From an uncultured Kordiimonas sp. (lineage in GTDB: Bacteria > Pseudomonadota > Alphaproteobacteria > Sphingomonadales > Kordiimonadaceae), in contig CANMRM010000004.1 in the NCBI GenBank assembly GCA_947500295.1, positions 185,663-249,662 of the forward strand: 64,000 bases of DNA, written 5' to 3'. Shown in pieces: positions 1-17,003 of the stretch. Both the position numbers and the translations under genes were made by a program. Within the stretch, counting starts at the first letter, position 1. Every line of letters begins with the position of its first letter. Below the pieces are notes generated by a model. That model saw nothing but the letters and a program-made list of their open reading frames with translations, was not told the DNA's origin and did not search any database.

Positions 1-80
1 GAGTAAAGCCGCATAGCGCGGTGTTCAATAGATGACAAAGAGAGCCTAAATCGGCAGCAATCCAGAGAAAGGAACGGACC

Positions 81-350
81 ATGGATGCACTATATAATGC
101 CCTGCCACACGACAAGGAGCATATCGACGGCTACTACACGAAACTCGGAGAGTTCTATAATTCTCTGAGCGCATCGGAAAAGAAGATATTCCATGCCAAT
201 GCGAAGCAAGCGAAATCAAACGCCCCAGGAATTGAAGCCTTGTTCAGTGACCCAGGCCACAAAGCTGACTTGGAGCAGTATCTGAAAGACAAGGCGGGTC
301 TGCAGGACGTGCCTGAAGATGAAGACATGATGGACTCTGCATTTTTCTAG
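81..350 (+). CDS. hypothetical small acidic protein (89 aa)
   Basis: Intact ORF with an AAAGGAA Shine-Dalgarno-like motif about 6 nt upstream of the ATG. No Cys, no signal peptide, acidic C-terminus EDEDMMDSAFF. No family recognised. Confidence 0.45.
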   Translation: MDALYNALPHDKEHIDGYYTKLGEFYNSLSASEKKIFHANAKQAKSNAPGIEALFSDPGHKADLEQYLKDKAGLQDVPEDEDMMDSAFF

Positions 351-1594
351 GGAGCCAGATTGGGCTTTCCGTACCCCTGGTACAGGGACGGCAGACCAAG
401 AGGTTGACACAGTTCGCGTAGCGTTCGGGCTGCATAGTCCGAACGAGCGGCGGTTCTGTCCAGCGTGAGATAATCTCGATCTGTGCTCAGACGCGCCGCC
501 AGCAAACCTGTAACAATGGCGACGGAGTCGGAAGAACCCACTTGGGCCGCATACAATGGCCTGCCGTCCTGCGATGCAACTGTGCTGGCGATGGCTGTGC
601 CCGGGGCCAGGCAGGTGAGGCCGGGGCCGTAGCTGCCGATTGCCGAGAGATACAGGCCGTTTTCCCCACGCTTTACGGGGTCTTTGGGGGCAAAAACGAG
701 GTCGGTTTCCGTGGTTGGGCCACAGGCATCGCGTCCAAGCGCACTCACCGCAGCAACATTTTCAAGTGCTGCGGGATAGCCTACTGGTTCTGCGCCTGTA
801 TTGCCTGCCGCGGCAATACAATAGGTGCCAGTCATACGGGCTTCTTCAATGGCGGCGGCCTGTGCGTCCGACGCTTTCTCGCTGCTAAGACTGAGGTTGA
901 TAAGGTCAACACCCACGTTCGTTGCCAGGTGCCGGATTGCTTGCGCGACGTCATCGGCCTTTGCGCCGTGTGCGCCCGCCTCATAAACCCGAACTGAAGA
1001 GAGGGCAGCGCCGGGTGCGATCCCGGCGGGGTGGTCGTTATTATCCGGTCGCGCACCAATCAAACCAGCCATCATGGTTCCGTGATACGACACGTCCGCG
1101 CCGTCTGCGCTATGTTCGCCGTCAACGAAGGCACCCAAATCGGCAACATGGGAAAGATAGGGGTGGGGGCCCGCGCCTGTGTCAATCAGGCCAACAGCAA
1201 CGCCCTGACCGCGCCCGGGGTCATACGTCGTGATGCCCACGCTTTTATGCCACCAGCCAAGCGGTCCATCAAAAACCAGCGGTGGGCACTCAATCTCGAC
1301 CCGCCTATTAAATTTCTGACTTGCACCATACCATGTGCCGGACTGTGCCACCGCGGAAACATAGAGGGGTTTTTCTTCAGCTGGTGCAAACGTGAGGCTT
1401 GTTTCCCCAGCTGAATTTGCCATCCCGGCGTGTACATGCTGGGCACCTGTTTCAATATTTTTAACAACCAGAAAAACAAGAGCGCCCGCAAGAGGGAGAC
1501 CGGCGGAAGTCACGTATACATCAACACCGGACTGCTCGGGGTTTTGCGCGGATGCTCTCGGTTTTCCCAGGTGGTGCGAAAAATCATGTGGCAT
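347..1594 (-). CDS. S8 family (subtilisin-like) serine peptidase, no signal peptide
   Basis: Catalytic motifs in order: Asp GLIDTGAG, His SYHGTMMAGLIG, Asn AAAGNTG, Ser VGSSDSVAIVTG. About 110 aa N-terminal extra domain. N-terminus is polar, with no leader or TM segment. Start lies 21 nt downstream of the sensor kinase stop. Confidence 0.8.
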   Translation of the reverse strand: MPHDFSHHLGKPRASAQNPEQSGVDVYVTSAGLPLAGALVFLVVKNIETGAQHVHAGMANSAGETSLTFAPAEEKPLYVSAVAQSGTWYGASQKFNRRVEIECPPLVFDGPLGWWHKSVGITTYDPGRGQGVAVGLIDTGAGPHPYLSHVADLGAFVDGEHSADGADVSYHGTMMAGLIGARPDNNDHPAGIAPGAALSSVRVYEAGAHGAKADDVAQAIRHLATNVGVDLINLSLSSEKASDAQAAAIEEARMTGTYCIAAAGNTGAEPVGYPAALENVAAVSALGRDACGPTTETDLVFAPKDPVKRGENGLYLSAIGSYGPGLTCLAPGTAIASTVASQDGRPLYAAQVGSSDSVAIVTGLLAARLSTDRDYLTLDRTAARSDYAARTLRELCQPLGLPSLYQGYGKPNLAP

Positions 1595-1615
1595 CCCGGT
1601 GCTGGACCTTTGCTG

Positions 1616-4600
1616 CTATTTTTTTGGAATTACTATTGTGAAAATCGATCCGCCGTCTTCTGATGTCCGGTAATCGACCGTCCCCTTGAGTGCGCCGTGT
1701 ACAAGGTTGTGAACAATGTGCAGGCCAAGGCCCGTATTGCCCTGACCGCGTTTTGTGGTGAAGAAAGGGTCAAATATCTTGTTTTGATGGATTTCGGAAA
1801 TCCCGCACCCGTTGTCTGACACTGCGATGGTCACAGCATTTGGCGACTGTCTCGCCTCTACACTTATTTCCCCCGCTTCATTGGGTTCAAATGCATGAGT
1901 TACCGCATTTGTAACCAGGTTTGTGATGACCTGACTTAATGCGCCTGCATTGATCAGGAGCCGTATGTTTTCGTCTCCTCCAACCGATGACTGATGTCCT
2001 TTTTCCATCAACAAAGGTTTCACGCTGATCATGACATCCCGCAAATAGGGTACAAGCTGGATATCGGCGATTTGCTGGCTGCTCTGGTCAGCGGACACCA
2101 GCTTGAAGCTCTTGATCATGTCTGCAGCTTTTTGGGCATTTTTGAGGGTGAGGCGCCCAAGGTCTCCGCTCAGGTCCAGATATTGCTCGAGGTCCGATTT
2201 GGTGATTTTTTGAGCGTCAAACTTGTCTTTGATCTTTGTCGTTTCACTTTCGATTTGAGACGCGCCGCTGACAACAAGGCCGATCGGTGTATTCACCTCG
2301 TGCGCGACGCCAGCCACAAGCCCGCCGAGCGCCGCAAGTTTTTCGGACTGTATCAGCTTTCCCTGCGTTTCCTTCAGCTCGGTCATCGTCTGCTCAATGC
2401 GCGTGTTCCGTTCTGCGAGCTCTGTTTTTTGCCGTTCTATCTTGTGAGTCCGCTCCACTACCTGTTGTTCAAGGCGCCGCTGGCTGGCCTCCAGTACAGC
2501 AAGGCGGGCACGATAGATGGCAAACAGGACCAGCAGTGCCATGGCCGCTACGAGCGCCTGGAACCAAAGCGTCTGATAGAAGGCAGGTAATACCTCAAAG
2601 GTTACTTGACTGGGCGTGGGGCTGGACCGGCCGTTTTGGTCAAATACGTTCATCATCAGCGTGTAGGAACCAGGTGAAAGGTTGGTGTAGGTGGCAGAAC
2701 GCCGCGTGATGTCCGTATGGATCCAGTCACGGTCAAAACCCTGAAGCCGGTGGGCATAGGTATAGGATGCGGCATCTATCGGAGACAAACTTGCATATTC
2801 AACGGTGAAGTCCCGATCTTCCGGCGTAATTTCGATGGGGGCCACGGAAGAGCCCAACGCTTCGCTGTAGTCGTAGGCGTCCCGCCCACCGACTATCAAG
2901 CGTGTTATCGTCGGTGTCTGAAGTGCCTTTTGCCGCTCAAACATGGCGGGGGACACAATTGTCAGCCGCCGAACACCTGTAAAGACCAGTTCGTTGGTGC
3001 GCATGAGTTTAGCGCCCTTGTCGGGCACATTGAGGGGCATGTCCATACTGTCGTCAAACAACATTGACCGCCCGCTGTCTGGATCGTACGCCAGCACACC
3101 TTCGGACGTGGTGAACCACATCCGGCCTTCCTTATCTTCAAGAACAGTATTTGCGTTGGTTCCCCTGTAGTCGGTGCCGTCAAACGGGAAGATAAATCTG
3201 GGCTGGGAAGCAAAAGGCTCGGTGGTGTAGGCGATCTGTTCTCCTGCAATCCACAGCCGGCCAGCCTTGTCCATAGCCATGGCCCGCGCGCTTCGCATGC
3301 GATCCTGATTGTTATCTTCCGACATGCTCTGAATGCGTGTCAGTTCCCGCCTGTCAGGCGACAATTTGAATACGCCGGACCGCGTTCCCATCCAGATTGT
3401 TTTGTCGGCGCTCTCCAGCATATCGAGCACCGGGCCCAAGTCCTGAGGCGAGACGCCCGAAATCCCGGTGCCCACCGGTTGCGGTGTTTGTGTATCAGGA
3501 TCGATGGTCAGGATGCCGCGAGAGAACTCTGACGTCCAGATAGTGCCGCTGCTGTCCTGAAAAATGGACACCAAATTCCAGCCTTCTGTACCGGAAACCA
3601 GGCTCACCGTATCGGTATCGAGGTCATAGGTATATAGCCCGCGCCCGACAGTTGGAATCCAAACGCGGCCGCTGCGGTCCTGCATGGCAGAAAAAATCCA
3701 TACCGGTGGGCTGTCACCAGGAGGCAATTGCAGGCTTTTGTCCAATATAAGCTGCCCCCCGACACGCCTGAAGATTGCGGGCTTCTTGTCCCGACTTGTC
3801 AGCAACAAGCGTCCGTCAGCCAACTCAAGCAGCAACCGAACTTCTGAATTTGAAGAAAAAACACCACTTGCACCCGGGTCACTTTCGTAGACCCTGACAT
3901 CTGTATTGCGGGGGTTGGCGACATTGAGGCCAGCACCCCATGTGGGTATCCATACCAAGCCGTTGGCGTCCTGAATGATGCTGAAGGTATTGTTCGAACT
4001 CAAACTGCTGTCGCGTCCCGGAACATGTTCGATCCGTCTGACCGACTGCTCCCCCCAGTCCACCACCTCAACTCCAGCGTCACGGTATCCAACCCAGAGG
4101 TCGCCATTTTCGTCCTCCATAAGGCTAGTCACAAAATCCGCGGTCAGAGGGACAGGAGGGGCGTTTGGGGCAAAATGGGTCAGAACATTTGACCCAGCCG
4201 TTTTCTGCATCAAGCCAATGCCGTCTGTGCCCAGCCACAAGGTATCTTCCCGATCAAACAGCACGACGGTAACCCGATCAAGCGGCGCATTTGTTTCAAG
4301 AGAGAAAGCTTCGCGGGCTCCTTCGAAAGTGCGTGTGGCTGGGTCAAACCGCTGCAGGCTGCCACCGAGACATCCGACCCAGAGATTGCCGCCCCTGTCG
4401 ACATCCGCGGCCAGACAGAGATTGCTGCTCAGGCTACTTGGGTCGTTAGGGTCGTTGCGGTAGCGTTCGATCGTTTCCAGGTCCGGCAACAAGCGAACCA
4501 TGCCGTCCCCGAAAACCATGAACATCATGCTGCCGTCTGGCAATTCCTGGATGAACAGTGTTTGTCCGGCGAAGTAGGTCTCGGCTTCTTCCGGATCATT

Positions 4601-5017
4601 GCCAAATCGCAAGAATATATTGGTGTCCGGGTCATACATGGTCACGCCATTTGACTCGGTGCCGACCCACACACGATCCATCCGGTCGACAACCACGCTT
4701 CTGAGCCGGTTGCCACTCAGGGAATTTTCGTTGTCAGGGTCATGGACATATTGAATGAAACGGTATCCATCATATCGGAACAAACCGGCGTAAGTCGCAA
4801 CCCAGACGAATCCTTTGGAGTCACGCGCGACAGAAGAAAGTTCTTGCGATACGAGGCCCTGTTCAGCCCCAAACCGGTGAAATCGGAGCTGTGGGCTCAC
4901 CATTCCTTCGTTGGTTTGTGCAATCGCGGTTTGCCAGGTTAATACCGTGCACAAGGTTGCAAGCAACCCCATTAATGGCCAGCTGAACACGCCAGGTCTT
5001 CTCATTTGCCCCACCAT
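1616..5017 (-). CDS. sensor histidine kinase with large periplasmic beta-propeller (two-component regulator propeller repeats) and Y_Y_Y-like domain
   Basis: N-terminal signal/TM segment, then about 750 aa of repeated W(V/I)GT / LWVG propeller-type repeats. Second TM is LWFQALVAAMALLVLFAIY, followed by a coiled coil. H-box VAHEVNTPIG, and ATPase N/G boxes NLVTNAVTHAF, DNGCGI, GTGLGL. Alternative start at M5 (5005). Confidence 0.85.
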   Translation of the reverse strand: MVGQMRRPGVFSWPLMGLLATLCTVLTWQTAIAQTNEGMVSPQLRFHRFGAEQGLVSQELSSVARDSKGFVWVATYAGLFRYDGYRFIQYVHDPDNENSLSGNRLRSVVVDRMDRVWVGTESNGVTMYDPDTNIFLRFGNDPEEAETYFAGQTLFIQELPDGSMMFMVFGDGMVRLLPDLETIERYRNDPNDPSSLSSNLCLAADVDRGGNLWVGCLGGSLQRFDPATRTFEGAREAFSLETNAPLDRVTVVLFDREDTLWLGTDGIGLMQKTAGSNVLTHFAPNAPPVPLTADFVTSLMEDENGDLWVGYRDAGVEVVDWGEQSVRRIEHVPGRDSSLSSNNTFSIIQDANGLVWIPTWGAGLNVANPRNTDVRVYESDPGASGVFSSNSEVRLLLELADGRLLLTSRDKKPAIFRRVGGQLILDKSLQLPPGDSPPVWIFSAMQDRSGRVWIPTVGRGLYTYDLDTDTVSLVSGTEGWNLVSIFQDSSGTIWTSEFSRGILTIDPDTQTPQPVGTGISGVSPQDLGPVLDMLESADKTIWMGTRSGVFKLSPDRRELTRIQSMSEDNNQDRMRSARAMAMDKAGRLWIAGEQIAYTTEPFASQPRFIFPFDGTDYRGTNANTVLEDKEGRMWFTTSEGVLAYDPDSGRSMLFDDSMDMPLNVPDKGAKLMRTNELVFTGVRRLTIVSPAMFERQKALQTPTITRLIVGGRDAYDYSEALGSSVAPIEITPEDRDFTVEYASLSPIDAASYTYAHRLQGFDRDWIHTDITRRSATYTNLSPGSYTLMMNVFDQNGRSSPTPSQVTFEVLPAFYQTLWFQALVAAMALLVLFAIYRARLAVLEASQRRLEQQVVERTHKIERQKTELAERNTRIEQTMTELKETQGKLIQSEKLAALGGLVAGVAHEVNTPIGLVVSGASQIESETTKIKDKFDAQKITKSDLEQYLDLSGDLGRLTLKNAQKAADMIKSFKLVSADQSSQQIADIQLVPYLRDVMISVKPLLMEKGHQSSVGGDENIRLLINAGALSQVITNLVTNAVTHAFEPNEAGEISVEARQSPNAVTIAVSDNGCGISEIHQNKIFDPFFTTKRGQGNTGLGLHIVHNLVHGALKGTVDYRTSEDGGSIFTIVIPKK

Positions 5018-5063
5018 GATATAGTCCTGTCTATCGGCAATAACCTATTGATCATGCACGGGA

Positions 5064-6125
5064 ATGACCACAAAAAAACAACTTTCAGAGGAAATCGTCG
5101 AATTTTTGGCGTCTGCGGGTCTGTTGTCATCAATGGCGGATCATGTGGTCTCGCTTTTGCCGGGTCGACGCCTTGCAGCCCAAGTTGACCTTGGAGCCGG
5201 CGAGCTTTTGTTCGTGAAAAAACATGGTTTGGCGTCCAGCCCCGGCGACCTGTGGCTCGACACGTCAGAGGCTGGCGGGGCTGCGGCCTCCCTTTGCGGC
5301 AGACCCGAAACACTTTTTAATCAGGAGGGCTGGTTTGCTAACCGCTATACACACAATAGGGGCACACTAAAAAACCTGCCTTTGGCGAGGTTTACGCCCG
5401 AACTGGCGCGCGCCATTGGACAGTCTCTTGGCTCGTTTCATAACAGAAGCGCCAGCTGGCTTTCCGGCCTTGGTCATGCGCCGGACAAGAGCGCAGATCC
5501 GCAACAAAGCATCCAGCCGATGCAAGCTCTTTCACCAGCCAGTTATGCCGATATGCCTGGTCTGGACAGGGATATGTTTATCGCGGCAAGTCAGGCCTGC
5601 TCTAAAGGGTTAACCACGCTTGCTGACGGGCTGAATACTGTCTGCGCGGTACACGGCGATTTCCAGGCTGGTAATATTTTGATCAAAAACGACCGTGCTG
5701 ACGCTGTTTGTTTTGTTGATTGGGAGAATGCTGGGGTAGGGGACCCCTCATGGGATTTGGGTCACCTGTTCGCAACACTGTTGAAAAGATGGCTTTACAC
5801 GGTTGATGCTGGCTCCGGCTCGATAGGTGGCGCGATTTTGCAGCAAAAGGGGGAATGGCTCCGGCTGTCAGGTTGGTGGGGTCATTTTCTCAAGGCCTAT
5901 AATCAGGAACTGGCGATTGTCTGCAGTGCTAAAATCGATGAGCAACAGCTAGCACGTGTTGGAGGGCATGCTTTGATGCAGCAATGTAAAAATATACTGT
6001 ACACGCGTGGTCAGTATACGGCCCGGGAGGTTCTGCTGCTGGCATTGGCAAGACAACTGATTGCAGAACCATGCAGGTCAATGGAGCTTTTGCTGCCTTC
6101 TAAGAAAAATGGCGACCGCCAATGA
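5064..6125 (+). CDS. APH/CotS-like phosphotransferase (putative Ser/Thr or small-molecule kinase)
   Basis: Catalytic loop HGDFQAGNILI and metal-binding segment FVDWENAGVGDPSWDLGHL, typical of the aminoglycoside-phosphotransferase-fold kinase family. Stop overlaps the next ATG (ATGA). Confidence 0.75.
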   Translation: MTTKKQLSEEIVEFLASAGLLSSMADHVVSLLPGRRLAAQVDLGAGELLFVKKHGLASSPGDLWLDTSEAGGAAASLCGRPETLFNQEGWFANRYTHNRGTLKNLPLARFTPELARAIGQSLGSFHNRSASWLSGLGHAPDKSADPQQSIQPMQALSPASYADMPGLDRDMFIAASQACSKGLTTLADGLNTVCAVHGDFQAGNILIKNDRADAVCFVDWENAGVGDPSWDLGHLFATLLKRWLYTVDAGSGSIGGAILQQKGEWLRLSGWWGHFLKAYNQELAIVCSAKIDEQQLARVGGHALMQQCKNILYTRGQYTAREVLLLALARQLIAEPCRSMELLLPSKKNGDRQ

Positions 6126-7060
6126 GTGTACGCGACCTGGTCTCCCATATTGTTGATGACTTCCGCTTCGATCCGAATGCCGGTTGGATACATGCAAGAG
6201 CAGGCGGAGTTGCATCTGCCGATGAAGTTTCAAAATTGGTCACCTTCCTCTACAGATATTATTATCAAGGGCTGACGCACCCGGCCCGGTATCAGTCAGA
6301 TGCCGCTGAAGCTAAAACGATCAAAAGCCTCGAGAACAGAGATCTTGTGGCTCGCTTTGTGGCTGAGTTACCTGCGGCAGACTACAGCAGTGCGGGCTGG
6401 CGAATTGTTTCGAGGCAGAACAAGTACATATTGGTGGAGCGCAAGGGAATTCAGCTGACGCTGGCCGATACAGGACACACTGAAGGCGGCCAGATTGATG
6501 AGACTGTCTGCATTCGCATGCCATCAAGCAGACCGTACGCTTCTCCCGGGTTTTTCACAGGTTTTGGCTCACTGGGTCCGGCAGGCAAAGACGAAAAACT
6601 GGACAGGATTTATTTTAATGTTGATGTGAATTCCGCACCTGCGCTGTTCGGCTGGATATTGCGATGGGCCGATGCCAAGGCCTTGCCAGTCACAGTCAAG
6701 GCCATTAATGCTCCAGGAAATTATGACCGCAGAGACTGTATTGTGGCTTACTTCCCGCGCGCTCGCTTTCAGGACATTCGGGCCGTGCTGGGAGAGGAGG
6801 TTGCTGGGCTGGACTTATCATTCAAGCCTGAAGTCCCGGCCTTCACATGCAAAATGCATCGCGGTATCGCCTGGGCACAGGATCCTGGCTCTGATGGAGC
6901 TGGTCAAACAAGCTTCGGTATGCACCGGTGTTCAGTAATCGCCAACGGGCTGAGCCAGGACCGTGCGGCAGGCGCACGAGCTCTGCAGCTGGGCATCCTG
7001 CAACACTGGGAAAAGTCGGGTCTGAACTTGGACAGGCCCCATTTATCGCCTGTCCAATAA
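6122..7060 (+). CDS. HopA1-like (T3SS effector HopA1 family / LanY-like) protein, putative phospho-Ser/Thr lyase
   Basis: Translationally coupled to the kinase. The core RIYFNVDVNSAPALFGWILRW...PVTVKAINAPGNYDRRDCIVAYFPR and downstream SFGMHRC resemble, from memory, the conserved HopA1-family core. The ORF itself is solid; the family call needs an HMM check. Confidence 0.5.
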   Translation: MSVRDLVSHIVDDFRFDPNAGWIHARAGGVASADEVSKLVTFLYRYYYQGLTHPARYQSDAAEAKTIKSLENRDLVARFVAELPAADYSSAGWRIVSRQNKYILVERKGIQLTLADTGHTEGGQIDETVCIRMPSSRPYASPGFFTGFGSLGPAGKDEKLDRIYFNVDVNSAPALFGWILRWADAKALPVTVKAINAPGNYDRRDCIVAYFPRARFQDIRAVLGEEVAGLDLSFKPEVPAFTCKMHRGIAWAQDPGSDGAGQTSFGMHRCSVIANGLSQDRAAGARALQLGILQHWEKSGLNLDRPHLSPVQ

Positions 7061-7068
7061 AAAGCAGA

Positions 7069-9612
7069 CTATTCGTTCCAATCAACCGCTTCAAAGAAAC
7101 GGCAGGCCGCCTCGCACTGTCCCATCAGTTGCGGTGTAAGTTTGCCGATTGTATCCCAGTTATCGCCGCGAACATTATATTCAATGGATTGTGCCGCCTC
7201 GGAAAGATGATACGCGCCAATAACGCCGCAACTTCCAGCAATTGAATGGGCAGAATACCGGACCCTTTCAGGGTCCTTGCGGGCAACGGAGATTTCCAAT
7301 TCTCTGATAAAACGCGGGATATCGCGCATGAACATATCAACCAGCACGCGGGAGCGCGCATTGAGATCACCATAGATCTCAAGCAACTTGGTCAGGTCAA
7401 TGCCTGCCTTCTCGGCCTCTTCAATGATTGAAACTTTGCCGGTTTTCGACTTGAGAAGAGGATAATGTTCAAGCACCAACGCTTCATCGTGGCTGGCTTC
7501 CACCCTCCGGCACTCTCCGGGCAGCCATTTATCGAGAGCGCTGGCAAGCGTTGCGATATCAACAGGCTTGCTGACATAATCATCCATGCCAGCCTTGCGG
7601 CTCATCTCAATGTCTTCCGGCAGAAAGCTGGCAGAAAGCGCTATTACTGGCATCCTGTCATTGTTGCCGTTTTCATTTTCACGAAGTTTGCGAACAACGT
7701 CATACCCTTCAATGTCTGGCATGAAGCAATCAATAAAGGCCAGATGGAACATGCCAATGTCTTCAGTCAGTGCTCTAATGGCGTCTCGGCCATTTTCGAC
7801 GATACGCACCGAAATAGACAGATGCTCAAGCATTTTGCGCAGGACAAACTGATTTGTTCGGGAGTCATCCGCCACCAATACTTTGGCACCAGGAAAACGG
7901 ATGCGCGACAAGTTGGCTTGATTGAAGTTTACCTTGTGCGGACCGGACGTTGCGCCATCATGAAGCTCTTGTGATTTCCCAGGGCTGACCAGATTTTTAA
8001 CCCCGGAGATCAGAGCCTCCGACCGGATCACCTTCATGACTATCTGATCAACTTCATAGCCACGCAAGCGGGATATCAAGGACCGGCTGGAACGGCGGAT
8101 CATTACGCCCACAGGGATATCGGTCAGTCGCTCGCGTTCGCGAATTTGACGTAACCAATGGATACAGTGATGATGATCTACAGTTTCATCAATAAGAATG
8201 GCGTCTATCGGCTTCTTTTTTGCAAGTGCCGTAACCAGATTGTCCACGGCCTGCGACGCGTCGCTAACATGCTGAACCTTCGCGCGCTCGTTGTGCAGGA
8301 TCGCAGCCACGGTTTGCATGCTTTTGGTCGCGTCACCGATCAGCATAATTCTCTTGCTGTCCAGTGCGTCCGGGCTGCTGCTTTCATCAGGTTCGCCGTG
8401 AAGCGGGATGGAGAAACGGAAGGTCGAGCCGACATCATGCTCGCTTTCGACTTCGATGGTGCCGTGCATAAGTTCAACAAGCCTGCGGCTGATTGCCAAC
8501 CCCAACCCGGTTCCACCATATTTGCGGCTGCTATCGCTGCTTGCCTGCTCAAAAGGAATATAAAGCCGTGATTGTTGCTCGGCGGTCATGCCGATGCCGG
8601 TATCTTCGATCTCGAACGTCAACCGATGACCGTCTTCGTCTTGTTGCTCGCATGAAACCCGGACAATGATATGTCCCTGGTTTGTGAACTTGATGGCATT
8701 GCCTACGAGGTTAATCAAAACCTGAGAGACGCGCTTGGGGTCGCACTCTACAAGTTCTGGCGCGCCTGGTTTGACATGGACAATCAGTTCCACGTCTTTC
8801 AGCCAGGCACGTGAGGCCAGCTGGTCGACCGCACCGTGGACCATGTCAGCCAGATTGACCGGCTTTTCTGCTATCTGAAGTTTGCCGGCATCGATCTTCG
8901 AGAAGTCCAAAATGTCATCGATAATCTCGAGCAGGTAACCGGCGCTGTCCTGGCAAATTTTGATCAGGGAATGTTGATCTTCGTCTGGTTTGGTATTGGA
9001 CAGAAGTTCCAGGGTACCAAGGATGCCATGCATTGGAGTCCGGATTTCGTGGCTGACAGAGGCCAGGAACAGGGAGCGGGCGGCCGATTTGGCTTCAATG
9101 AACCGGCGGTGGCGCTCACTGCGCTCCAGATCCTGCATGTCAGCATAATTTCTAAGTGCGCCGATAACACTGGTGATCAACCGTTCTTGGGTAAGGTCGG
9201 TTTTCGAGCGATAGTCGTTAATGTCGTATTTCAGAACAACTTCGGCTTCAGGCGCCTGTCCTGGTTGGCCGGTACGCAGAATAATCCGTACCCGGCTGTT
9301 ACCCATTTCATTGCGAATCTTTTCAACAAGCTTCAGGCCGGAGTTGTCACTCTCCATCACGACATCCAGCAGAATGACCGCGATCTCGGGGATATCGGCG
9401 AGCATTTTTTCAGCCTCGGCGGCTGAAAAAGCGCTTAGCAAGTCTATGCGTGCCCCGCGAAAGCCAATGCTGTGCAGATTGAGCTTGGTCAGGGTGTGCA
9501 CTTCAGGTTCATCGTCAACGACGAGAACCTTCCAGTTCTCCGTTGGCGCATCGCCGGGCTCCGCAGGAAGTTCATCGTCCTGCGCGTCAGCAAACAAATA
9601 GTTATCCTGCAT
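7069..9612 (-). CDS. hybrid sensor histidine kinase/response regulator (REC-HisKA-HATPase-pseudoREC-REC-Hpt)
   Basis: N-terminal receiver KVLVVDDEPEV...LLDVVMESD. H-box SHEIRTPMHGILG. ATPase boxes LINLVGNAIKFT, DTGIGM, GGTGLGLAIS. Degenerate receiver-like segment, then a canonical receiver KVLVADDSRTNQ...FIDCFMPDIEG...SKP. C-terminal Hpt with AHSIAGSCG. No TM segment seen. Confidence 0.9.
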   Translation of the reverse strand: MQDNYLFADAQDDELPAEPGDAPTENWKVLVVDDEPEVHTLTKLNLHSIGFRGARIDLLSAFSAAEAEKMLADIPEIAVILLDVVMESDNSGLKLVEKIRNEMGNSRVRIILRTGQPGQAPEAEVVLKYDINDYRSKTDLTQERLITSVIGALRNYADMQDLERSERHRRFIEAKSAARSLFLASVSHEIRTPMHGILGTLELLSNTKPDEDQHSLIKICQDSAGYLLEIIDDILDFSKIDAGKLQIAEKPVNLADMVHGAVDQLASRAWLKDVELIVHVKPGAPELVECDPKRVSQVLINLVGNAIKFTNQGHIIVRVSCEQQDEDGHRLTFEIEDTGIGMTAEQQSRLYIPFEQASSDSSRKYGGTGLGLAISRRLVELMHGTIEVESEHDVGSTFRFSIPLHGEPDESSSPDALDSKRIMLIGDATKSMQTVAAILHNERAKVQHVSDASQAVDNLVTALAKKKPIDAILIDETVDHHHCIHWLRQIRERERLTDIPVGVMIRRSSRSLISRLRGYEVDQIVMKVIRSEALISGVKNLVSPGKSQELHDGATSGPHKVNFNQANLSRIRFPGAKVLVADDSRTNQFVLRKMLEHLSISVRIVENGRDAIRALTEDIGMFHLAFIDCFMPDIEGYDVVRKLRENENGNNDRMPVIALSASFLPEDIEMSRKAGMDDYVSKPVDIATLASALDKWLPGECRRVEASHDEALVLEHYPLLKSKTGKVSIIEEAEKAGIDLTKLLEIYGDLNARSRVLVDMFMRDIPRFIRELEISVARKDPERVRYSAHSIAGSCGVIGAYHLSEAAQSIEYNVRGDNWDTIGKLTPQLMGQCEAACRFFEAVDWNE

Positions 9613-9905
9613 TTACCCCTGATCCGGCTGAGTTACACATAAGCTTAGTTACCCTAATCGGGATACAACCATAAGGAAAGAAAGTTTCGCAACTTATATC
9701 GAAGGCTTTCGACATAGGCCAGCCCATTTTAATTTTCGTTGCACGACGCCTTCCTTACTTAGTGTCAGCTAGGACAGGCAACGATAGAGACAAGTGTTGT
9801 GCAGCACATTTTTAGTATGTTCAGCGCTCTAACTTATTGCGCCGAGTTGCTGCAATTCGCGTATAGATTGAGTGGGCGGATGATTGTTCGCTTAATGACC
9901 TGGTT

Positions 9906-10244
9906 TTAACTTTCGGTACAGTCCCGGTTTTGGTCAGAGGTCTTGAGCGTGATAATCCGTTCAGGATCCGGGCTAGATGTACTGATAACGATATCAGGGT
10001 TTGCTCGACAAGTTTTGCAGAGGGCGGGGCGCTTTCCAATGACATATTTGTCCCAGATATTCATCTTGGAGTAGTGGCCACATTGACGACATCTGACCCG
10101 TGGTAACTTTATTATAAACAGAATGAATATTGTGGCGGCATTGGCGAGCAGAACATACACAATAGTATGAGAGTCGGTATGCACTGTCAGGGGTATGGCG
10201 ATACCAAACAGAAGTACTCCTATTATTTTGTTCGCCAAGGTCAT
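9906..10244 (-). CDS. hypothetical small membrane protein with C-terminal zinc-ribbon-like CxxC...CxxC
   Basis: Two hydrophobic helices followed by CRQCGH...CKTCR. AT-rich codons (several ATA) are atypical for this window. No clear SD. Lies in an AT-rich gap. Confidence 0.35.
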   Translation of the reverse strand: MTLANKIIGVLLFGIAIPLTVHTDSHTIVYVLLANAATIFILFIIKLPRVRCRQCGHYSKMNIWDKYVIGKRPALCKTCRANPDIVISTSSPDPERIITLKTSDQNRDCTES

Positions 10245-10764
10245 ATGGGCTATAGCTGTTTTTCCGGCGGGTCAATGTTGCGTGTTGGTTCCAAGGCCTT
10301 TCCAGGGTCATCTGCTGTTCCATCCATTCAGCGCACGGACGGAGGCCTGCATGTTGATTTGCTAGCCTAGATCGCAATCGAAGTCGCGTATCAAATTGTA
10401 AAAAAGTGTCGCCTATTCGAAAAGGTTTGGCAGTTTTGTCGCGACATGGCCAGGCTGTAGACAAATCTGCCAAGAAGCGCTGTGCGTCACCTGTATTTGG
10501 CCAAAGCGTCGCATCGTATTTCTATCCAAACAGCTTGGTGTCGGTGTCGCTGTTTCTGGGGCGATATGGGAAATCATGGTTGCAGCCCGCAACAAGCTGC
10601 TCAGTTTTATGGTAATCATCAGGTTTGGGCTGTCTCGGTCCAAAGTGTCTTGATCAGGTAATATGTGTGAGAACAAATAGTAAACAAAAGGATGTAAGAT
10701 ACTGTAAAATATATAATATTAAAGGGATATGGGTTGGATTGAGGTTAAATTTCTTATTAGTATT

Positions 10765-10811
10765 TCCCATGAAATCCCATTGACCATAAGCTATTTCCCA
10801 TGATATCCCAT
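10765..10811. promoter_or_regulatory. candidate MraZ operator: four TCCCAT (= ATGGGA) boxes in two 10-bp-spaced pairs
   Basis: TCCCAT at 10765, 10775, 10796 and 10806, lying 88-134 nt upstream of the mraZ ATG. E. coli MraZ is known to bind TGGGN direct repeats with 10-bp periodicity upstream of mraZ. Confidence 0.5.
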
Positions 10812-10898
10812 GAAAGTTCGGATGACGATCCGGATGCTCGTGGTGTTTGTGCTCGTTGAGCAGCCTGCGGGGGGAGGAAAGCGGGGGCTTGTGGGACA

Positions 10899-11378
10899 AT
10901 GGCGTTATTCCTGTCCACATTTGAAAACAAGGTTGACAAGAAAGGGCGTGTTTCTGTCCCTGCGTCTTTTCGTACAGCCGTTGCTTCCAGCCATTTTCAA
11001 GGCGTTGCTGTCTACCGGCACCTGAGTTTGCCCTGCGTCGAAGGCGCTGATATCTCATTTTTGGAACAGTTGTCCGACCAACTCTATGAAGGGTTTGGCC
11101 CTTTCGATACGGACCAGTTGTCCGTTGCGACGTCGATACTGGCTGAGTCCAACCAGTTGGGCTTCGATTCTGAAGGCCGAATTCTACTGCCTGCCCCCAT
11201 GCGGGAATTTATGGGTGTCGAAGGTTTTGCAACCTTTGTTGGCCTCGGCCGTAAGTTTCAGATCTGGGCGCCTGAGGCCTTTGCCGAGCACAGAGCCCGA
11301 CAGCGTGACATTGCCGCCGACAAGATTACGGCTCTTCCGCCATTCGGCAAGCGCGATGGCGCAGGGGGACGGCCATGA
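10899..11378 (+). CDS. mraZ: division/cell wall cluster transcriptional regulator MraZ
   Basis: MALFLSTFENKVDKKGRVSVPASFR plus a second SpoVT/AbrB-like repeat DSEGRILLPAPMREF. First gene of the dcw cluster. Confidence 0.95.
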   Translation: MALFLSTFENKVDKKGRVSVPASFRTAVASSHFQGVAVYRHLSLPCVEGADISFLEQLSDQLYEGFGPFDTDQLSVATSILAESNQLGFDSEGRILLPAPMREFMGVEGFATFVGLGRKFQIWAPEAFAEHRARQRDIAADKITALPPFGKRDGAGGRP

Positions 11379-12376
11379 GCGCCCCCCGTTTTGAACAGAA
11401 ATTAGCCGGTCAACATATCCCTGTCTTGATGAATGAAGTTGTCGCCGCGATGCGGCCCGCGCCAGGTGAGATATATGTCGACGGTACGTTTGGTGCAGGT
11501 GGGTACAGTAGGGCGGTGCTTGAAAGTGCCGACTGCCACATCGTGGCCATTGACCGTGATCCGCAAGCCATTGAACGCGCCGATGACCTGTCGACCGAAT
11601 TTGGCGAGCGTTTTACAATACTGTCGGGTTGTTTTGGTGACATGGACAGGCTGCTTGCTGCAGCTGACCTCGGGCCCGTTGACGGTGTCATGCTGGATAT
11701 CGGCGTGTCCTCGTTTCAGCTGGATGATGCTGAACGCGGTTTCTCCTTTCAGGAAGATGGCCCGCTCGATATGCGGATGAGCGCTGACGGCGAAAGCGCA
11801 GCTGATGTCGTGAACACCTACGACGAAACAGATCTGGCAGATATCATCTATCAATTTGGTGAAGAGCGAAAGTCGCGCCGGATTGCTGCGGCAATTGTAA
11901 GGCGCCGGGAAGATCAGCCGTTTGAGAGGACGCTGGACCTTGCGCAACTCGTTGAGTCAGTCGTTGGCAGGCCTCCCGTTAAAAAGGGCCGAAAGGCCGT
12001 GCACCCAGCGACACGTACGTTTCAGGCTTTGCGCATACATGTAAACGATGAGCTCGGAGAACTGAAGCGGGGGCTGGCTGCGGCAGAAATTGTTCTTAAG
12101 CCAAATGGTCGCCTTGTGGTCGTTAGTTTTCACTCTCTTGAAGATCGCCTGGTTAAATCTTTTATGGCGGAGCGGTCCGGTCACGTGCCGGCCGCATCCC
12201 GCCATGTCCCTATGCATGACCAGCAAAAGGCACCCCCGTCGTTCCATCTCGAGAAGCGCGGCGTGACAAAACCGAGTGCTGAAGAAGAAGCGCAAAACCC
12301 TCGCGCGCGCTCTGCAAAGCTGCGTGTAGCGATCCGAACTGACGCCCCGGCCATGAAGGAGGTGTTTCATGCGTAA
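11375..12376 (+). CDS. rsmH: 16S rRNA (cytosine1402-N4)-methyltransferase
   Basis: HIPVLMNEVV, DGTFGAGGYS, DIGVSSFQLD, FHSLEDR motifs. 4-nt overlap with mraZ. Confidence 0.95.
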   Translation: MSAPRFEQKLAGQHIPVLMNEVVAAMRPAPGEIYVDGTFGAGGYSRAVLESADCHIVAIDRDPQAIERADDLSTEFGERFTILSGCFGDMDRLLAAADLGPVDGVMLDIGVSSFQLDDAERGFSFQEDGPLDMRMSADGESAADVVNTYDETDLADIIYQFGEERKSRRIAAAIVRRREDQPFERTLDLAQLVESVVGRPPVKKGRKAVHPATRTFQALRIHVNDELGELKRGLAAAEIVLKPNGRLVVVSFHSLEDRLVKSFMAERSGHVPAASRHVPMHDQQKAPPSFHLEKRGVTKPSAEEEAQNPRARSAKLRVAIRTDAPAMKEVFHA

Positions 12377-12764
12377 GACTTTCGCCGCCATAGCAGCTTT
12401 TTGTGCCCTGATGACAGGGGCAGCCCTCATGCAGCTCAAGTTGGCTGTACAGGAGCAGGCCGACAAGGTCGCTGCCCTCGCAGACCAGATTCATCAGGAT
12501 GAGGAAAGTTTGCGCATCCTGGAGGCTGAGTGGGCGTATCTGACATCGCCGCAAGCTCTGCAGGAGCAGTCTATTGAGTTTCTTGCGCTTATGCCGCCGA
12601 CACCAAGGCAAGTTATTGAAACAGCAAAAGATATTCCAATGAGGCGGAGCGACGAAGTTATCAGGGAAGACTCCTCGGTCTTGCTGCCAACGGCGCAAAC
12701 GCCTCCGGAAAAGCCCGCCGATAACGAGACCAACGCGAAGGATAAAAGGAAAAAAGCGCTATGA
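12369..12764 (+). CDS. ftsL: cell division protein FtsL (alphaproteobacterial type)
   Basis: 131 aa with a single N-terminal TM segment followed by a coiled coil. Position between rsmH and ftsI, overlapping both neighbours. Confidence 0.75.
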   Translation: MRKTFAAIAAFCALMTGAALMQLKLAVQEQADKVAALADQIHQDEESLRILEAEWAYLTSPQALQEQSIEFLALMPPTPRQVIETAKDIPMRRSDEVIREDSSVLLPTAQTPPEKPADNETNAKDKRKKAL

Positions 12765-14455
12765 GTTTCGCGCGTGCCCAAACGTTCCGTTTTGATTCAG
12801 GGCCTGTAAACGAGGACCTGTCGCCGATGACGATCGCCAGAAGTCGACTGATGATAGGCGTTTTGTTGTTTTTGGGTGCCTTTGTTCTCATGGGTGTGCG
12901 CACCATGGAGCTCGGGATGTCATCTCCGGCGGCGCAGCGCACGGCGGCGCGTGAGATCATTGTGCCAACAGTGACTTTTGCCCGGTCCGATATTGTGGAC
13001 CGAAACGGCGAGCTGCTCGCTGCAAATCTTCAAACCTCGTCCTTGTATGCCAACCCGCGCAAAATCAAGAATGCAAGGGAGCTGGCAGGTGCTCTGGAAC
13101 AAATACTACCCGGCCTGTCGCGGTCCGAGCTGGAGCAAAAACTGTCTTCGAGCCGCAGTTTTGTCTGGATCAAGCGAAAGCTTACACCAAGACAAAAATG
13201 GCAGGTCAATGCTCTGGGTGAACCAGCCCTGAACTTTCGGGATGAGGAAGATCGTCTCTACCCTCACGGGCGACTGGCGTCTCACGCCCTTGGTTATGTC
13301 GACATTGATGGCAAGGGCATCGCTGGTGTTGAACATTATTTCAATGACCGATTGTCTGAGGCTGGCCGAACCATGGAGCCTTTGGCGTTATCTCTTGATG
13401 TCCGTGTGCAATATGCGCTCGCTGATGAGTTGGAGGCTGCCATGCGCGCGCACCAGGCAATCGGCGCAGCCGGCCTGGTGATGGACGTCAATACCGGCGA
13501 AATTATTGCTATGGTTTCAATGCCGGATTTTGACCCCAACAATGTTCGCGGCGTTGGCGACACGGAAAAATTCAACCGCGCAACCAAAGGTGTTTACGAG
13601 CTTGGGTCGACTTTCAAAACCTTCACGTTTGCCAATGCGCTTGATGACGGTATCGCAACCTTTGATGACGGATACGATGCCACCAAGCCATTGCGTATTT
13701 CGAGGTTTACGATCAATGACGATCATCCCAAAAAACGGTATCTGACGCTGCCCGAGATATTCGCTTTTTCTTCCAACATTGGCACAGCGCAGCTTGCCCT
13801 TGATATTGGTGGCGAACGCCAGCAGGATTTCCTGCAGTCATTGGGGCTGTTGTCGCCGGCCAGCCTGGAGCTCACCGAAGTGGGGGCTCCTATGTATCCG
13901 ACGACCTGGCGCAAAGTTTCGACGATGACGATTTCATATGGCCATGGCATCGCGGTCAGTCCTGTTCAGCTTGCGTCCGGCATTTCCTCAATGGTGAATG
14001 GCGGCAGGTTGAATGCGCCCACATTGCTTAAGTCCGGCGACAATTGGGACAACGGTCGGCAGGTTATATCGCCAGCGACCAGCCGCCAGATGCGGCAACT
14101 GCTCAGGCTGGCTGTTACCAAAGGCACGGGCGGTCGCTCAGACGCTCGCGGCTACCGGGTGGGTGGCAAAACAGGCACTGCAGAAAAAGCAAGCGGCGGG
14201 GGGTATGACCGCAAAGCTCTCATATCGTCTTTCATGGGCGTTTACCCCATGGACGACCCTCAATATGCCGTATTTGCGCTGTTGGATGAACCAAAAGGCA
14301 CCAAAGAAACCTTTGGGTTTGCGTCCGGTGGCTGGGTGGCGGCGCCTGTGGTGAAGAATGTGATTTTGCGTACTGCTCCGCTGCTTGGAGTGCTGCCCAA
14401 AGAAGAGGATGAGGGGCTCTATCAGAGAGTTGCCTTGATGATCGACGACGACTGA
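12761..14455 (+). CDS. ftsI: peptidoglycan D,D-transpeptidase FtsI (PBP3)
   Basis: N-terminal TM segment. Transpeptidase motifs STFK, SSN and KTGT. dcw position. Confidence 0.9.
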   Translation: MSFARAQTFRFDSGPVNEDLSPMTIARSRLMIGVLLFLGAFVLMGVRTMELGMSSPAAQRTAAREIIVPTVTFARSDIVDRNGELLAANLQTSSLYANPRKIKNARELAGALEQILPGLSRSELEQKLSSSRSFVWIKRKLTPRQKWQVNALGEPALNFRDEEDRLYPHGRLASHALGYVDIDGKGIAGVEHYFNDRLSEAGRTMEPLALSLDVRVQYALADELEAAMRAHQAIGAAGLVMDVNTGEIIAMVSMPDFDPNNVRGVGDTEKFNRATKGVYELGSTFKTFTFANALDDGIATFDDGYDATKPLRISRFTINDDHPKKRYLTLPEIFAFSSNIGTAQLALDIGGERQQDFLQSLGLLSPASLELTEVGAPMYPTTWRKVSTMTISYGHGIAVSPVQLASGISSMVNGGRLNAPTLLKSGDNWDNGRQVISPATSRQMRQLLRLAVTKGTGGRSDARGYRVGGKTGTAEKASGGGYDRKALISSFMGVYPMDDPQYAVFALLDEPKGTKETFGFASGGWVAAPVVKNVILRTAPLLGVLPKEEDEGLYQRVALMIDDD

Positions 14456-14467
14456 AGAGGTCAAAGA

Positions 14468-15934
14468 GTGGCAACAAGTCTGTTGCAATTGCTGGGTGGT
14501 GATCTTGTGGCCAAGGATGTTGTCATCAGTGGATTGACGAATGACAGCCGGCGTGTGGGCCCTGGTGACTTGTTTGCGGCCTTGCCTGGATCCGGCGTAG
14601 ATGGTCGAAAATTTATACCCGAAGCTATTGAACAAGGTGCTGCAGCGATCCTGACAACCAGCGTTGGGGAAATGGATTCTTGCAATATTCCTGTCGTCAC
14701 AGATGCCAATCCACGTCGCCGTTATGCAGAGTTGGCTGCCCGGTTTTGTGGGCCGCAACCTGCGTTCCAGGTGGCGGTTACCGGAACAAATGGCAAGACC
14801 TCTGTTGCTGAATTCACCAGACAAATATGGCGCCATTCAGGATTGCAGGCTGCCAGCGTCGGCACACTCGGGGTCCGCGCGCAAACAAAGAATACAACTG
14901 GTGGCTTGACGACACCGGATCCAATGGAACTTCACGCTGCTTTGGCCGATCTCACCAAAAATGGCGTGAGCAACGTGGCTGTTGAGGCATCCAGCCATGG
15001 TCTGGATCAATATCGACTGGATGGCATGCAGTTTCAAGCAGCGGCCTTTACCAACCTGACCAGAGATCATCTGGACTACCACAAGACGGAGCAGGCCTAT
15101 TTTTATGCCAAGGCCCGGCTTTTTGGGGAGCTTCTTGCGCCGGGCGCGACAGCCGTAATCAACACAGATGATAGTTGGGGCGCGATACTCGACGACATCG
15201 CCTGGGGACGTTCGCTCAGCCGGATAACTTTTGGTCGCGGCGAAAAGGCAGTACTCAGGCTTCTTGGTGCGGTGCCGACCAGCCGCGGCCAGCAGCTTCG
15301 AATTGCCTATGGTGGCAACGAATATGAAACTGAACTGGCTCTCATCGGGGAATTTCAGGCGTGGAATGCATTGGCTGCAGCTGGCCTGGTTTTGTCTGGC
15401 GGTGCAGACCTGCCAGATATTTTGGCCGCACTGCCAAAGCTTGAAGGCGTTCCGGGTCGCCTTGAATTGATTGGAACGATTAACGGTGCGAGCATATTCG
15501 TGGATTATGCTCACACACCGGATGGACTGCGGACCGTGTTGAATGCGGTGCGTGCCCACCAGCCTGCCCGCCTGCATGTCATATTCGGGTGCGGCGGAGA
15601 CCGCGACAGTGGAAAACGGCCTCAAATGGGGCATATCGCCAGTGAACTCGCCGACGCAGTTTATGTGACAGATGACAATCCGCGATCAGAAAACCCTGGC
15701 AAAATTCGGCAAGAGATACTGGATGCCTGCCCGGGCGCACTCGAGTTTGCGGACAGGTCGACTGCCATTGAGGCAGCTGCAAACGCAGCCAATCCGGGTG
15801 ATATGGTCATAGTTGCGGGAAAAGGGCACGAAACCGGCCAAACATTTGCGGACGGTACGATTGAGTATTCGGACATCGAAACTGTTCGGGCGTTAACAGG
15901 CGCGGTGTCTCACGCCGTACAAGGGAAGGTATAA
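14468..15934 (+). CDS. murE: UDP-N-acetylmuramoyl-L-alanyl-D-glutamate--2,6-diaminopimelate ligase
   Basis: GTNGKTS P-loop and the DNPR motif ([10 protein letters not shown]) indicating meso-DAP specificity. GTG start. 488 aa, so not a MurE-MurF fusion. Confidence 0.95.
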
Positions 15935-15938
15935 GAAC

Positions 15939-17003
15939 ATGTTGCAGCTACTGGCAGAACAGGGTGGTCTGTTTAACCTGTTTTCCTACCTGACCTTTCG
16001 AACGGGCGGGGCCGTGATAACAGCATTGATAATCTGTTTTCTTACAGGCCCGAGGATAATTAACTGGTTGAAGACAAAGCAGAAAAAAGGCCAGCCTATT
16101 CGTGAAGACGGACCGCAAAGCCACATAGTGGCCAAAGCCGGAACCCCAACCATGGGCGGCTTCATGATTTTGCTGGCCTTATGCATATCCACGCTTTTGT
16201 GGTCTGATCTGCGTAACCCCTATGTGTGGGCTGTGCTCTTTGTCACCCTCAGTTTTGGGGCCATTGGATTTGTGGACGATTATCTCAAAGTGACCAAGGC
16301 GTCGTCGGCAGGTGTGCCGGGGCGGCTCAAATTTTTGATTGAAATGGCTATCGGGCTGGCTGTTGCATGGTGGTTGGCAGCGCTTGTGGAGCCCACACTG
16401 GCCCTGCCGTTTTTTAAAGCTCTCTTGATAAACCTCGGGTTATTTTATCTGCCTTTCGCCTGTCTGGTTATTGTTTGGGCTGGTAACGCCGTGAACTTGA
16501 CCGATGGCCTGGACGGCCTCGCAATTGTTCCGGTGATGATTGCAGCCGCCGCATTTGGATTGATTGCCTACCTTGTCGGCAACACGGTTTACACCGAGTA
16601 TCTCGGTATTGCTTATGTTGCCGGCGCCGGTGAACTTGCAGTGCTTTGCGGCGCCATTATCGGCGCTGGCCTCGGGTTTCTTTGGTTCAACGCTCCGCCT
16701 GCCATGGTATTCATGGGGGATACAGGGTCCCTCGCGCTCGGTGGTGCGATAGGGACCATTGCAGTTGTCACCAAACATGAAATTGTCCTGGGCATCATTG
16801 GCGGGCTGTTTTGGCTTGAAACCATTTCTGTAATCGTGCAGGTGCTATCGTTCAAACTGACGGGCAAGCGCGTTTTCAGAATGGCGCCCCTGCATCACCA
16901 CTATGAACAAAAAGGCTGGGCAGAACCCACGATCGTAATCCGTTTCTGGATTATTGCGGTTGTGCTGGCACTGGTTGGCTTGGCAACGTTGAAACTGAGG
17001 TAG
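15939..17003 (+). CDS. mraY: phospho-N-acetylmuramoyl-pentapeptide transferase
   Basis: Polytopic membrane protein with [13 protein letters not shown] and [11 protein letters not shown] motifs. Confidence 0.95.

Follow-up and report, generated by a model that had tools for sequence, protein, structure and literature searches.

The 64,000-nucleotide stretch of DNA analyzed here, which we call the window (positions 185,663 to 249,662 of contig CANMRM010000004.1, assembly GCA_947500295.1, from an uncultured Kordiimonas sp.), carries two overlapping genes, one for a kinase of the APH fold and one for a HopA1-like lyase. The pair is best explained as the dehydratase unit of a rare, cysteine-free cassette resembling those that make peptides synthesized by the ribosome and modified after translation (RiPPs), and it probably acts on an 89-residue peptide encoded in that cassette. 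An earlier interpretation made from the letters alone (the sequence-only reading) had called the pair stand-alone, with no precursor. It instead lies within a seven-gene block that includes a candidate precursor, a radical S-adenosylmethionine (SAM) enzyme of family TIGR03975 and an S8 peptidase. The same reading had offered a distantly encoded peptide as one possible target, which came close: the likely substrate is encoded 4.7 kb upstream, but within the same cassette. The sequence-only reading is partly supported, and its stand-alone protein dehydratase gives way to the likely dehydratase unit of a RiPP-like cassette with built-in sensor kinases.

The pair and the spacer in front of it are arranged as follows.

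Positions 5018-5063, no strand: divergent spacer between the sensor kinase and APH genes (46 nt), with the motif CTATTGAT at 5045-5052.
Positions 5064-6125, forward strand: putative APH-fold protein/peptide kinase, LanK-like (353 aa; Pfam APH).
Positions 6122-7060, forward strand: putative HopA1/LanY-like phospho-Ser/Thr lyase (312 aa; Pfam HopA1).

The kinase open reading frame (ORF) contains VHGDFQAGNILI and FVDWENAGVGDPSWDL, and the lyase ORF contains RIYFNVDV, KAINAPGNYDRRDCIVAYFPR and SFGMHRC. The lyase starts within an ATGA at 6122-6125, a 4-nt overlap with the kinase gene that implies translational coupling. This stop/start overlap is kept in four related loci (L001, L002, L003 and L073; L numbers denote the loci compared), a retention that fits the obligate heterodimer formed by CaoKY and LxmKY (PMC9486802, PMC12141560). 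Upstream, the 46-nt gap separates the pair from a divergent neighbor; downstream, 8 nt (7061-7068) separate it from a convergent one. These gaps, the two ORFs, their motifs and the overlap had all been described by the sequence-only reading, and all hold. The spacer between the sensor kinase and APH genes measures 45-72 nt across all cassettes, and CTATTGA(T/C) occurs 8-15 nt upstream of the APH start in 7 of 7 spacers (window, L001, L002, L003, L004, L010 and L068). The APH gene adjoins the HopA1 gene in most of 59 genome loci, and phosphotransferase and HopA1 genes were co-encoded in 96% of 1,340 cases in a published survey (PMC8153245).

The 312-aa ORF matches the Pfam HopA1 family (PF17914) with an expect value of 2.9e-29 and 102.5 bits, against a cutoff of 22.7. 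A profile built from 17 HopA1-like homologues matches chain 9DK1_B, the LxmY subunit of the lexapeptide dehydratase LxmKY (PDB 9DK1; PMC12141560), at 2.3e-30, and matches the Pseudomonas syringae effector HopA1 (4RSX) more weakly, at 2.5e-7. The AlphaFold2 (AF2) model of the lyase as a single chain has a mean confidence (pLDDT) of 86.4. When it was used as a Foldseek query, three LxmY chains ranked first (TM 0.70-0.74, E 5e-21, 317-324 aligned columns over the full length, the N-terminal kinase-contacting part included). HopA1 came next, ahead of class III lanthipeptide synthetases (lyase domains) and OspF/SpvC. The resemblance to HopA1 that the sequence-only reading had noted is borne out by the Pfam match, the LxmY profile match and the LxmY fold. 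Four residues, R162, K193, R203 and Y210, are invariant in the 17 homologues and align with the corresponding residues of LxmY. Their counterparts in CaoY, R187, K219, R229 and Y236, are important by mutagenesis or alignment (PMC9486802), and the spacing of the four is nearly the same (31/10/7 in the lyase, 32/10/7 in CaoY). Overall identity between the lyase and LxmY is ~22%.

Profile searches placed the 353-aa kinase ORF in the APH family (1.7e-12), as had been expected, and K52, H197-x-D199, N204 and D219 (the DWE-Asp) are invariant in the kinase alignment. Its top NCBIfam match is LxmK, at 43 bits. This is far under the equivalog cutoff of 315 (NF038156); the two proteins have fold and role class in common and are not equivalogs. 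A kinase profile matched the LxmK chain 9dk1_A at 5.9e-9 (profile 85-341, chain 106-383) among generic APH matches, with a span that is one of the longest among the APH matches listed. Because the lyase matches HopA1 and LxmY in sequence and in fold, the catalytic residues are kept and the APH kinase motifs are intact, we assign the pair to a divergent LanK/LanY-type two-component Ser/Thr dehydratase, an activity predicted from sequence and modeled structure. The machinery of phosphorylation and elimination that the sequence-only reading had proposed agrees with this assignment. A defence-system interpretation was dropped, as PADLOC models gave no meaningful match for the kinase, the lyase or the S8 peptidase.

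The cassette runs in the order B12-binding radical SAM gene (~633 aa, forward), 89-aa ORF (forward), S8 peptidase (reverse), sensor kinase (~1133 aa, reverse), APH (forward), HopA1 (forward) and hybrid kinase (~847 aa, reverse). Its other members in the window are the following.

Positions 1-6, forward strand: last sense codon and stop codon (GAG TAA) of the B12-binding radical SAM gene, placed by alignment of window 1-420 with positions 1830-2300 of L002.
Positions 81-350, forward strand: candidate precursor peptide (89 aa; acidic tail ...VPEDEDMMDSAFF; no Cys).
Positions 347-1594, reverse strand: S8 subtilisin-like peptidase, proposed leader peptidase (415 aa; Pfam Peptidase_S8, 2e-28).
Positions 1616-5017, reverse strand: sensor histidine kinase (1133 aa; Pfam and hydrophobicity scan).
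Positions 7069-9612, reverse strand: cytoplasmic hybrid histidine kinase (847 aa; REC, HisKA, HATPase_c, REC and Hpt; Pfam and NCBIfam).

The window copy is complete apart from the radical SAM gene, which is cut at the left edge: the window begins 3 nt before its stop codon, so the full gene is seen only in relatives and was missed when the stretch was first read. The cassette recurs in eight independent relatives with HopA1 identities of 33-68%, and the same gene order is found at 68% (L002), 46% (L001), 39% (L003) and 33% (L004). Complete copies are present at L001/L009, L002, L003, L004, L010/L074, L068 and L075; the copy at L069 is interrupted by the end of its contig. L010/L074 belongs to a Sphingomonadales metagenome-assembled genome (MAG), and the genomes closest to the window are likewise MAGs, carrying the labels Alphaproteobacteria and Sphingomonadales. 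What lies beyond the cassette varies with the locus: on the right, a division/cell wall (dcw) cluster, a group of ECF-sigma/FecR/TonB genes, a TonB receptor or further two-component genes; on the left, an SBP_bac_3 gene, an acyl-CoA ligase with an AraC regulator, or a DUF2946 gene with a TonB receptor. Since the flanks differ on both sides, the seven-gene block is a conserved unit, and the neighborhood conservation by which the sequence-only reading proposed to judge the pair extends to all eight relatives.

The genes of the cassette diverge at different rates. Over the same locus pairs (the window against L001, L003, L004, L068 and L075), identity is 31-48% for APH and HopA1 and 54-89% for the other five genes (63-87% for the peptide, 70-89% for the radical SAM enzyme and 54-79% for the kinases). 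No cassette genes evolve faster than APH and HopA1, which diverge about twice as fast as the other five. In one MAG (MH1_Bin8; L010 9866-10944, equal to L074 16032-16975) the HopA1-like gene is split over two frames near residue 140, which represents either a frameshift pseudogene or an assembly error; the other cassette genes there are intact. There was no compositional signal of recent horizontal transfer, GC content being 52-55% in both the cassette and the flanking dcw cluster. A scan of positions 1-11000 for promoters and terminators returned counts at the level of shuffled sequence, and a sigma-54-like interpretation of TTGAAAC...TTG upstream of the radical SAM gene was rejected because the spacing is unfit in most loci.

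The 89-aa ORF adjoins the radical SAM gene in every cassette and has an AGGA ribosome-binding site. Its ratio of non-synonymous to synonymous differences (pN/pS) is 0.02-0.28, with pS of 0.58-1.08 (saturated) and pN of 0.01-0.21. Saturated synonymous sites combined with low pN indicate, from sequence comparison, that the ORF is a real gene under strong purifying selection. The family is tiny: we found 11 clusters at 90% identity in 5.8 billion (5.8e9) proteins and, on scanning 1.84 billion (1.84e9) exhaustively with HMMER, three representatives. Every variant has the C-terminus D-x-D-hydrophobic-[M/L]-D-[S/T]-(x)-F-F, with an invariant D85; position 86 holds Ser in 7/14 variants and Thr in 7/14. 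Residue 86 is the only hydroxyl residue kept in all 14 variants, and no Cys column is conserved among them. Short variants of 52-57 aa lack the N-terminal 40 residues and keep both the tail motif and A-L-F-x-D...K-A-x-L-E-x-[Y/F]-L-K-x-K-A-G. When other APH/HopA1 loci were searched, the D-[S/T]-x-F-F tail was found only in cassette loci, and the cassettes hold no other conserved small ORF. In the window the peptide gene and the S8 gene converge with a 4-nt overlap of their stop codons at 347-350; the two are separated by 25-400 nt in L004, L068, L069, L073 and L075. The sequence-only reading was right that no Cys-rich ORF, LanC/LanX cyclase or ABC exporter lies nearby, but it overlooked the 89-aa ORF and the S8 gene.

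Wherever a contig is long enough to tell, the precursor gene found on it is accompanied there by APH and HopA1, and the S8 gene is kept in all long contigs. HopA1 forms 12 close clusters and the precursor 11, and they share contigs. The most telling locus is a rearranged variant, L073, which carries in one uninterrupted run the radical SAM gene, a tandem pair of 52-aa precursors, S8, APH and HopA1; no sensor kinase separates S8 from APH there.

L073 positions 7579-8061: tandem short precursors, ending in ...DKDLMDSAFF and ...DKDVMDTPFF.

Tandem precursor paralogues beside contiguous tailoring genes form a classic RiPP arrangement.

The predicted functions of the neighboring enzymes fit peptide maturation. 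The 633-aa radical SAM orthologue at L001 matches TIGR03975, "RiPP maturation radical SAM C-methyltransferase", at 526.8 bits (cutoff 281.85); among solved structures, the B12 radical SAM methylase TokK comes closest to it. In NCBIfam the S8 protein has matches to mycosin, QhpE and PatA/G-like families, all below cutoff. Its DTG, HGT and GSS catalytic motifs are readable in the sequence, and it has an N-terminal domain of ~125 aa. Direct inspection of the sequence and a hydrophobicity scan found no signal peptide or I9 propeptide, suggesting that the peptidase is probably intracellular. Related S8 peptidases lie beside other APH/HopA1 pairs (L027, 1e-52; L034, 7e-62), and relatives of the S8 and radical SAM enzymes accompany APH/HopA1 in loci from unrelated phyla, namely Planctomycetales, Thermoanaerobaculia and Sideroxydans loci (L027, L034 and L046). 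The sensor kinase consists of a signal peptide, periplasmic Reg_prop propellers with a Y_Y_Y domain, one transmembrane segment (813-844) and a cytoplasmic HATPase_c core, and is conserved at 54-93% identity in the eight cassettes. The hybrid kinase has no hydrophobic segment and stands at the right end of the eight cassettes with 60-96% identity. A CTTTCCTT motif lies ~55 nt upstream of its start (window ~9665-9680).

From these observations we infer a pathway in which substrate, site, order of steps, cleavage and kinase role are all proposals. The kinase would phosphorylate Ser/Thr and the HopA1-like lyase would then eliminate the phosphate to give dehydroalanine or dehydrobutyrine. The CaoK/CaoY and LxmK/LxmY heterodimers phosphorylate and then eliminate Ser/Thr on leader-bearing peptides (PMC9486802, PMC12141560), and HopA1-phosphotransferase pairs mark RiPP-like clusters (PMC8153245). 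The likeliest substrate would be the 89-aa peptide at 81-350 and the likeliest site Ser86, which would become dehydroalanine; the Thr found there in half of the relatives would become dehydrobutyrine. CaoY prefers the first Ser to be dehydrated to follow an acidic residue, and such a residue suits the cationic site of the lyase (PMC9486802, PMC12141560); the candidate site follows the invariant D85. The radical SAM enzyme would C-methylate residues of the tail. Cutting off the helical leader would fall to the S8 peptidase and would leave a short dehydrated, methylated, Cys-free peptide. A cut by the peptidase right after D85 would yield an alpha-ketoacyl (pyruvoyl or 2-oxobutyryl) tripeptide. 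Hydrolysis of an exposed N-terminal dehydro residue to an alpha-ketoacyl group is general lantibiotic and polytheonamide chemistry. The two sensor kinases may regulate the pathway or sense its product.

Several facts weigh against this pathway. The peptide is conserved along its whole length, with a mean column identity of 83%, above that of APH and HopA1, which is atypical for RiPPs. It matches no known precursor family: two precursor variants, searched with NCBIfam and Pfam, had no match at E<=1 to the Nif11 (TIGR03798) and NHLP (TIGR03793) models, and assignment to Nif11/NHLP was rejected on these grounds. AF2 modeled the peptide at low confidence (pLDDT 54), with a helix over residues ~2-71 that was taken as a weak hint. 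The cassette is divided into four transcription units that alternate in direction instead of making up a single operon, and neither an exporter nor an output response regulator is conserved in the cassettes. L071/L072 places the sensor kinase beside the radical SAM gene and a 57-aa precursor (...DEDILDSFF), with no S8 gene between them, on a contig of 2.5 kb that is too short to show whether APH/HopA1 are present. Together with the fast evolution of APH and HopA1, these facts leave room for a reading in which the 89-aa product is an intact modified protein and, to a lesser degree, for a protein target of the pair and for coincidental synteny.

If the 89-aa product were a small folded protein that stays intact, its modified tail could serve as a ligand, a cofactor carrier or a regulator of a relay between the two kinases, and the S8 peptidase would have another role. 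We regard this as unlikely. It would account for conservation of the peptide beyond that of the putative tailoring enzymes, for the helix predicted over the N-terminal 70 residues, for the absence of an exporter and for the sensor kinase gene that adjoins the peptide gene in L071. Against it stand the 52-57-aa variants, in which the tail motif survives the loss of the N-terminal 40 residues, the tandem short precursors of L073, which are a RiPP hallmark, and the conservation of S8 in all long contigs; confidence in the predicted fold is also low. A further extension of the proposed pathway, in which the cassette is a self-contained RiPP-derived autoinducer circuit of Alphaproteobacteria built around a LanK/LanY dehydratase, also strikes us as improbable: the tail, dehydrated, C-methylated and clipped to a very small product that may be an alpha-ketoacyl tripeptide, would leave the cell and be sensed by the propeller kinase, which would pass the signal to the hybrid kinase.

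Irreversible dehydration of Ser/Thr on a protein, as the sequence-only reading had suggested, would most plausibly affect one of the two co-conserved histidine kinases, in the manner of OspF/SpvC inactivating MAP kinases. The HopA1 fold is distantly related to the OspF/SpvC lyases (Foldseek; PMC9486802), the pair diverges from the sensor kinase gene across the short spacer with its conserved motif, and the hybrid kinase follows the pair in eight cassettes. However, the closest match of the lyase is the RiPP lyase LxmY (2e-30) and not the effector HopA1 (2.5e-7), the characterized bacterial APH/HopA1 pairs all act on leader-bearing peptides (PMC9486802, PMC8153245), and in L073 the S8, APH and HopA1 genes stand without an intervening sensor kinase, beside the radical SAM gene and two precursors. 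A protein target is now less likely than the 89-aa peptide, and we give it little credence. Least credible of all is coincidental synteny, in which the true target of APH and HopA1 (some other peptide, or a small molecule) is unlinked and the pair is only carried along with its neighbors: the two genes do evolve much faster than the rest of the cassette, they form a transcription unit of their own and the APH fold includes small-molecule kinases, but the adjacency persists down to 31-35% identity, through changed flanks on both sides and in two rearranged variants, the numbers of close HopA1 and precursor clusters match and the two share contigs, and the cassettes offer no other conserved small ORF.

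Maturation of the 89-aa peptide by the pair, the reading we favor, can be set beside several known systems. Closest in enzymology are LxmK/LxmY (lexapeptide, 9DK1) and CaoK/CaoY (cacaoidin), which have in common with the window an APH kinase and a HopA1 lyase encoded by adjacent, coupled genes and the catalytic Arg/Lys/Arg/Tyr set. The window pair differs from them in its low identity to LxmY (~22%) and in the score of its kinase (43 versus 315 bits). It also differs in having a precursor without Cys, no LanX/LanC cyclase, LanD decarboxylase or reductase, one candidate site against up to eight dehydrated residues, and an alphaproteobacterial instead of an actinobacterial host. Neither a Cys-containing precursor for (methyl)lanthionine or AviMeCys nor LanX (a second APH-like protein), LanC or LanD, the defining parts of a class V lanthipeptide (lanthidin) pathway, was found here; the view that this is no lanthipeptide cluster was sound, given a precursor without Cys and no cyclase. 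No LanX, LanC or LanD occurs in the cassette or its relatives, and LanC appears only in the distant APH/HopA1 loci L006 and L034.

The thioamitide enzymes TsaC/TsaD (TvaC/TvaD) and HopA1-associated RiPP-like clusters carry the same signature of phosphotransferase plus HopA1 (PMC8153245). In contrast to thioamitides, the cassette lacks YcaO/TfuA thioamidation and the machinery for aminovinylcysteine (AviCys); the YcaO and TfuA Pfam families are absent from the called genes of any cassette. Eyles et al. (2021) predict many uncharacterized precursor families (PMC8153245), a prediction that the cassette fits, and the three text supplementary files of that paper contain no radical SAM, subtilisin, histidine-kinase or alphaproteobacterial entries. 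The effector HopA1 of P. syringae (4RSX, 4RSW) has PF17914 and the C-terminal fold in common with the lyase. Its match is weaker (2.5e-7 and TM 0.45, against 2e-30 and TM 0.74 for LxmY), and the window gene has a partner kinase alongside and no secretion context.

The overall logic of the cassette is closest to that of proteusin pathways, of which polytheonamide is an example: a long leader, a TIGR03975 C-methyltransferase, a Ser/Thr dehydratase and a dedicated protease. Freeman et al. are said to have described, in 2012 and 2017, an NHLP/Nif11 precursor acted on by the TIGR03975-family enzymes PoyB/PoyC, the Thr dehydratase PoyF and the leader protease PoyH. The N-terminal alpha-keto acyl group of polytheonamide arises when core position 1 is dehydrated and the leader is then removed, and chemistry of this type is possible in the cassette. 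A TIGR03975 C-methyltransferase does stand beside the precursor gene, as judged from the L001 orthologue, whereas the NHLP/Nif11 leader of proteusins had no match at E<=1 in the two precursor variants searched. The cassette's dehydratase, protease and precursor family differ from those of proteusins: a LanK/LanY pair replaces the dehydratase of the LanM N-terminal type, an S8 enzyme replaces the papain-like protease, the precursor has no Nif11/NHLP match, there is no epimerase, and the core would be very short.

Sensor kinases inside a modified-peptide cluster also recall LanRK autoinduction, of which NisRK is the lantibiotic example. The cassette differs in having two kinases, one with a periplasmic propeller and one a REC-HisKA-HATPase-REC-Hpt hybrid, and no conserved DNA-binding response regulator; sensing of the product by these kinases is purely hypothetical. 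In the literature on HopA1-type dehydratases and on TIGR03975 we found no published description of this combination of genes.

The remainder of the window is housekeeping in character, with dcw, ftsZ, uvrC, nadA, quinolinate phosphoribosyltransferase, glycyl-tRNA synthetase subunit and pyruvate phosphate dikinase genes. Positions 10899-26757, directly to the right of the cassette, look like a dcw cluster. FtsZ was confirmed at 25105-26757, and MraZ, a Methyltransf_5 (RsmH-type) methylase, a penicillin-binding protein (PBP) transpeptidase and a Mur ligase were called in the syntenic L002. In a 929-aa ORF on the reverse strand (34375-37164), an M14 zinc carboxypeptidase domain is confined to the N-terminal third, and the ~650 residues beyond it had no Pfam match at E<=1e-5.

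Two of the distant loci deserve mention. In a Thermoanaerobaculia MAG (L034 4561-6516), a 651-aa protein rich in Thr, Pro and Cys, with long near-identical repeats (...TLPTFTVPTIPTVFPPCTIPTLMPPCT...), is encoded between a related S8 gene and an APH/HopA1/LanC-like set. A TIGR03975-like radical SAM gene lies close by, and the repeat protein is possibly a giant lanthipeptide-type precursor with multiple cores. A metagenome contig (L006 8898-12303) encodes distant HopA1 homologues (~30% identity) in a three-gene run of APH, HopA1 and LanC_like, the HopA1-LanC type of Eyles et al., which differs from the window cassette.

The type of enzyme and its association with RiPPs were already known; the precursor family, the combination of enzymes, the host group and the linkage to sensor kinases are new. 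To our knowledge, the characterized HopA1-type dehydratases are all actinobacterial and their products, the class V lanthipeptides, thioamitides, kintamdin and lipoavitides, are crosslinked through Cys. If the proposed pathway is correct, a LanK/LanY-type pair would be at work in the Alphaproteobacteria on a Cys-free precursor with a single conserved target residue, combined with a B12 radical SAM methylase of the proteusin type and hard-wired to two sensor kinases. The cassette family is very rare, with about a dozen clusters among 5.8 billion proteins, and it would provide a compact, testable system (one peptide, one site and three tailoring enzymes) for the recognition of substrates by LanK/LanY enzymes. 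A small modified peptide of a new kind might also come to light through it, for which the linkage to sensor kinases hints at a function in signalling rather than in antibiosis.

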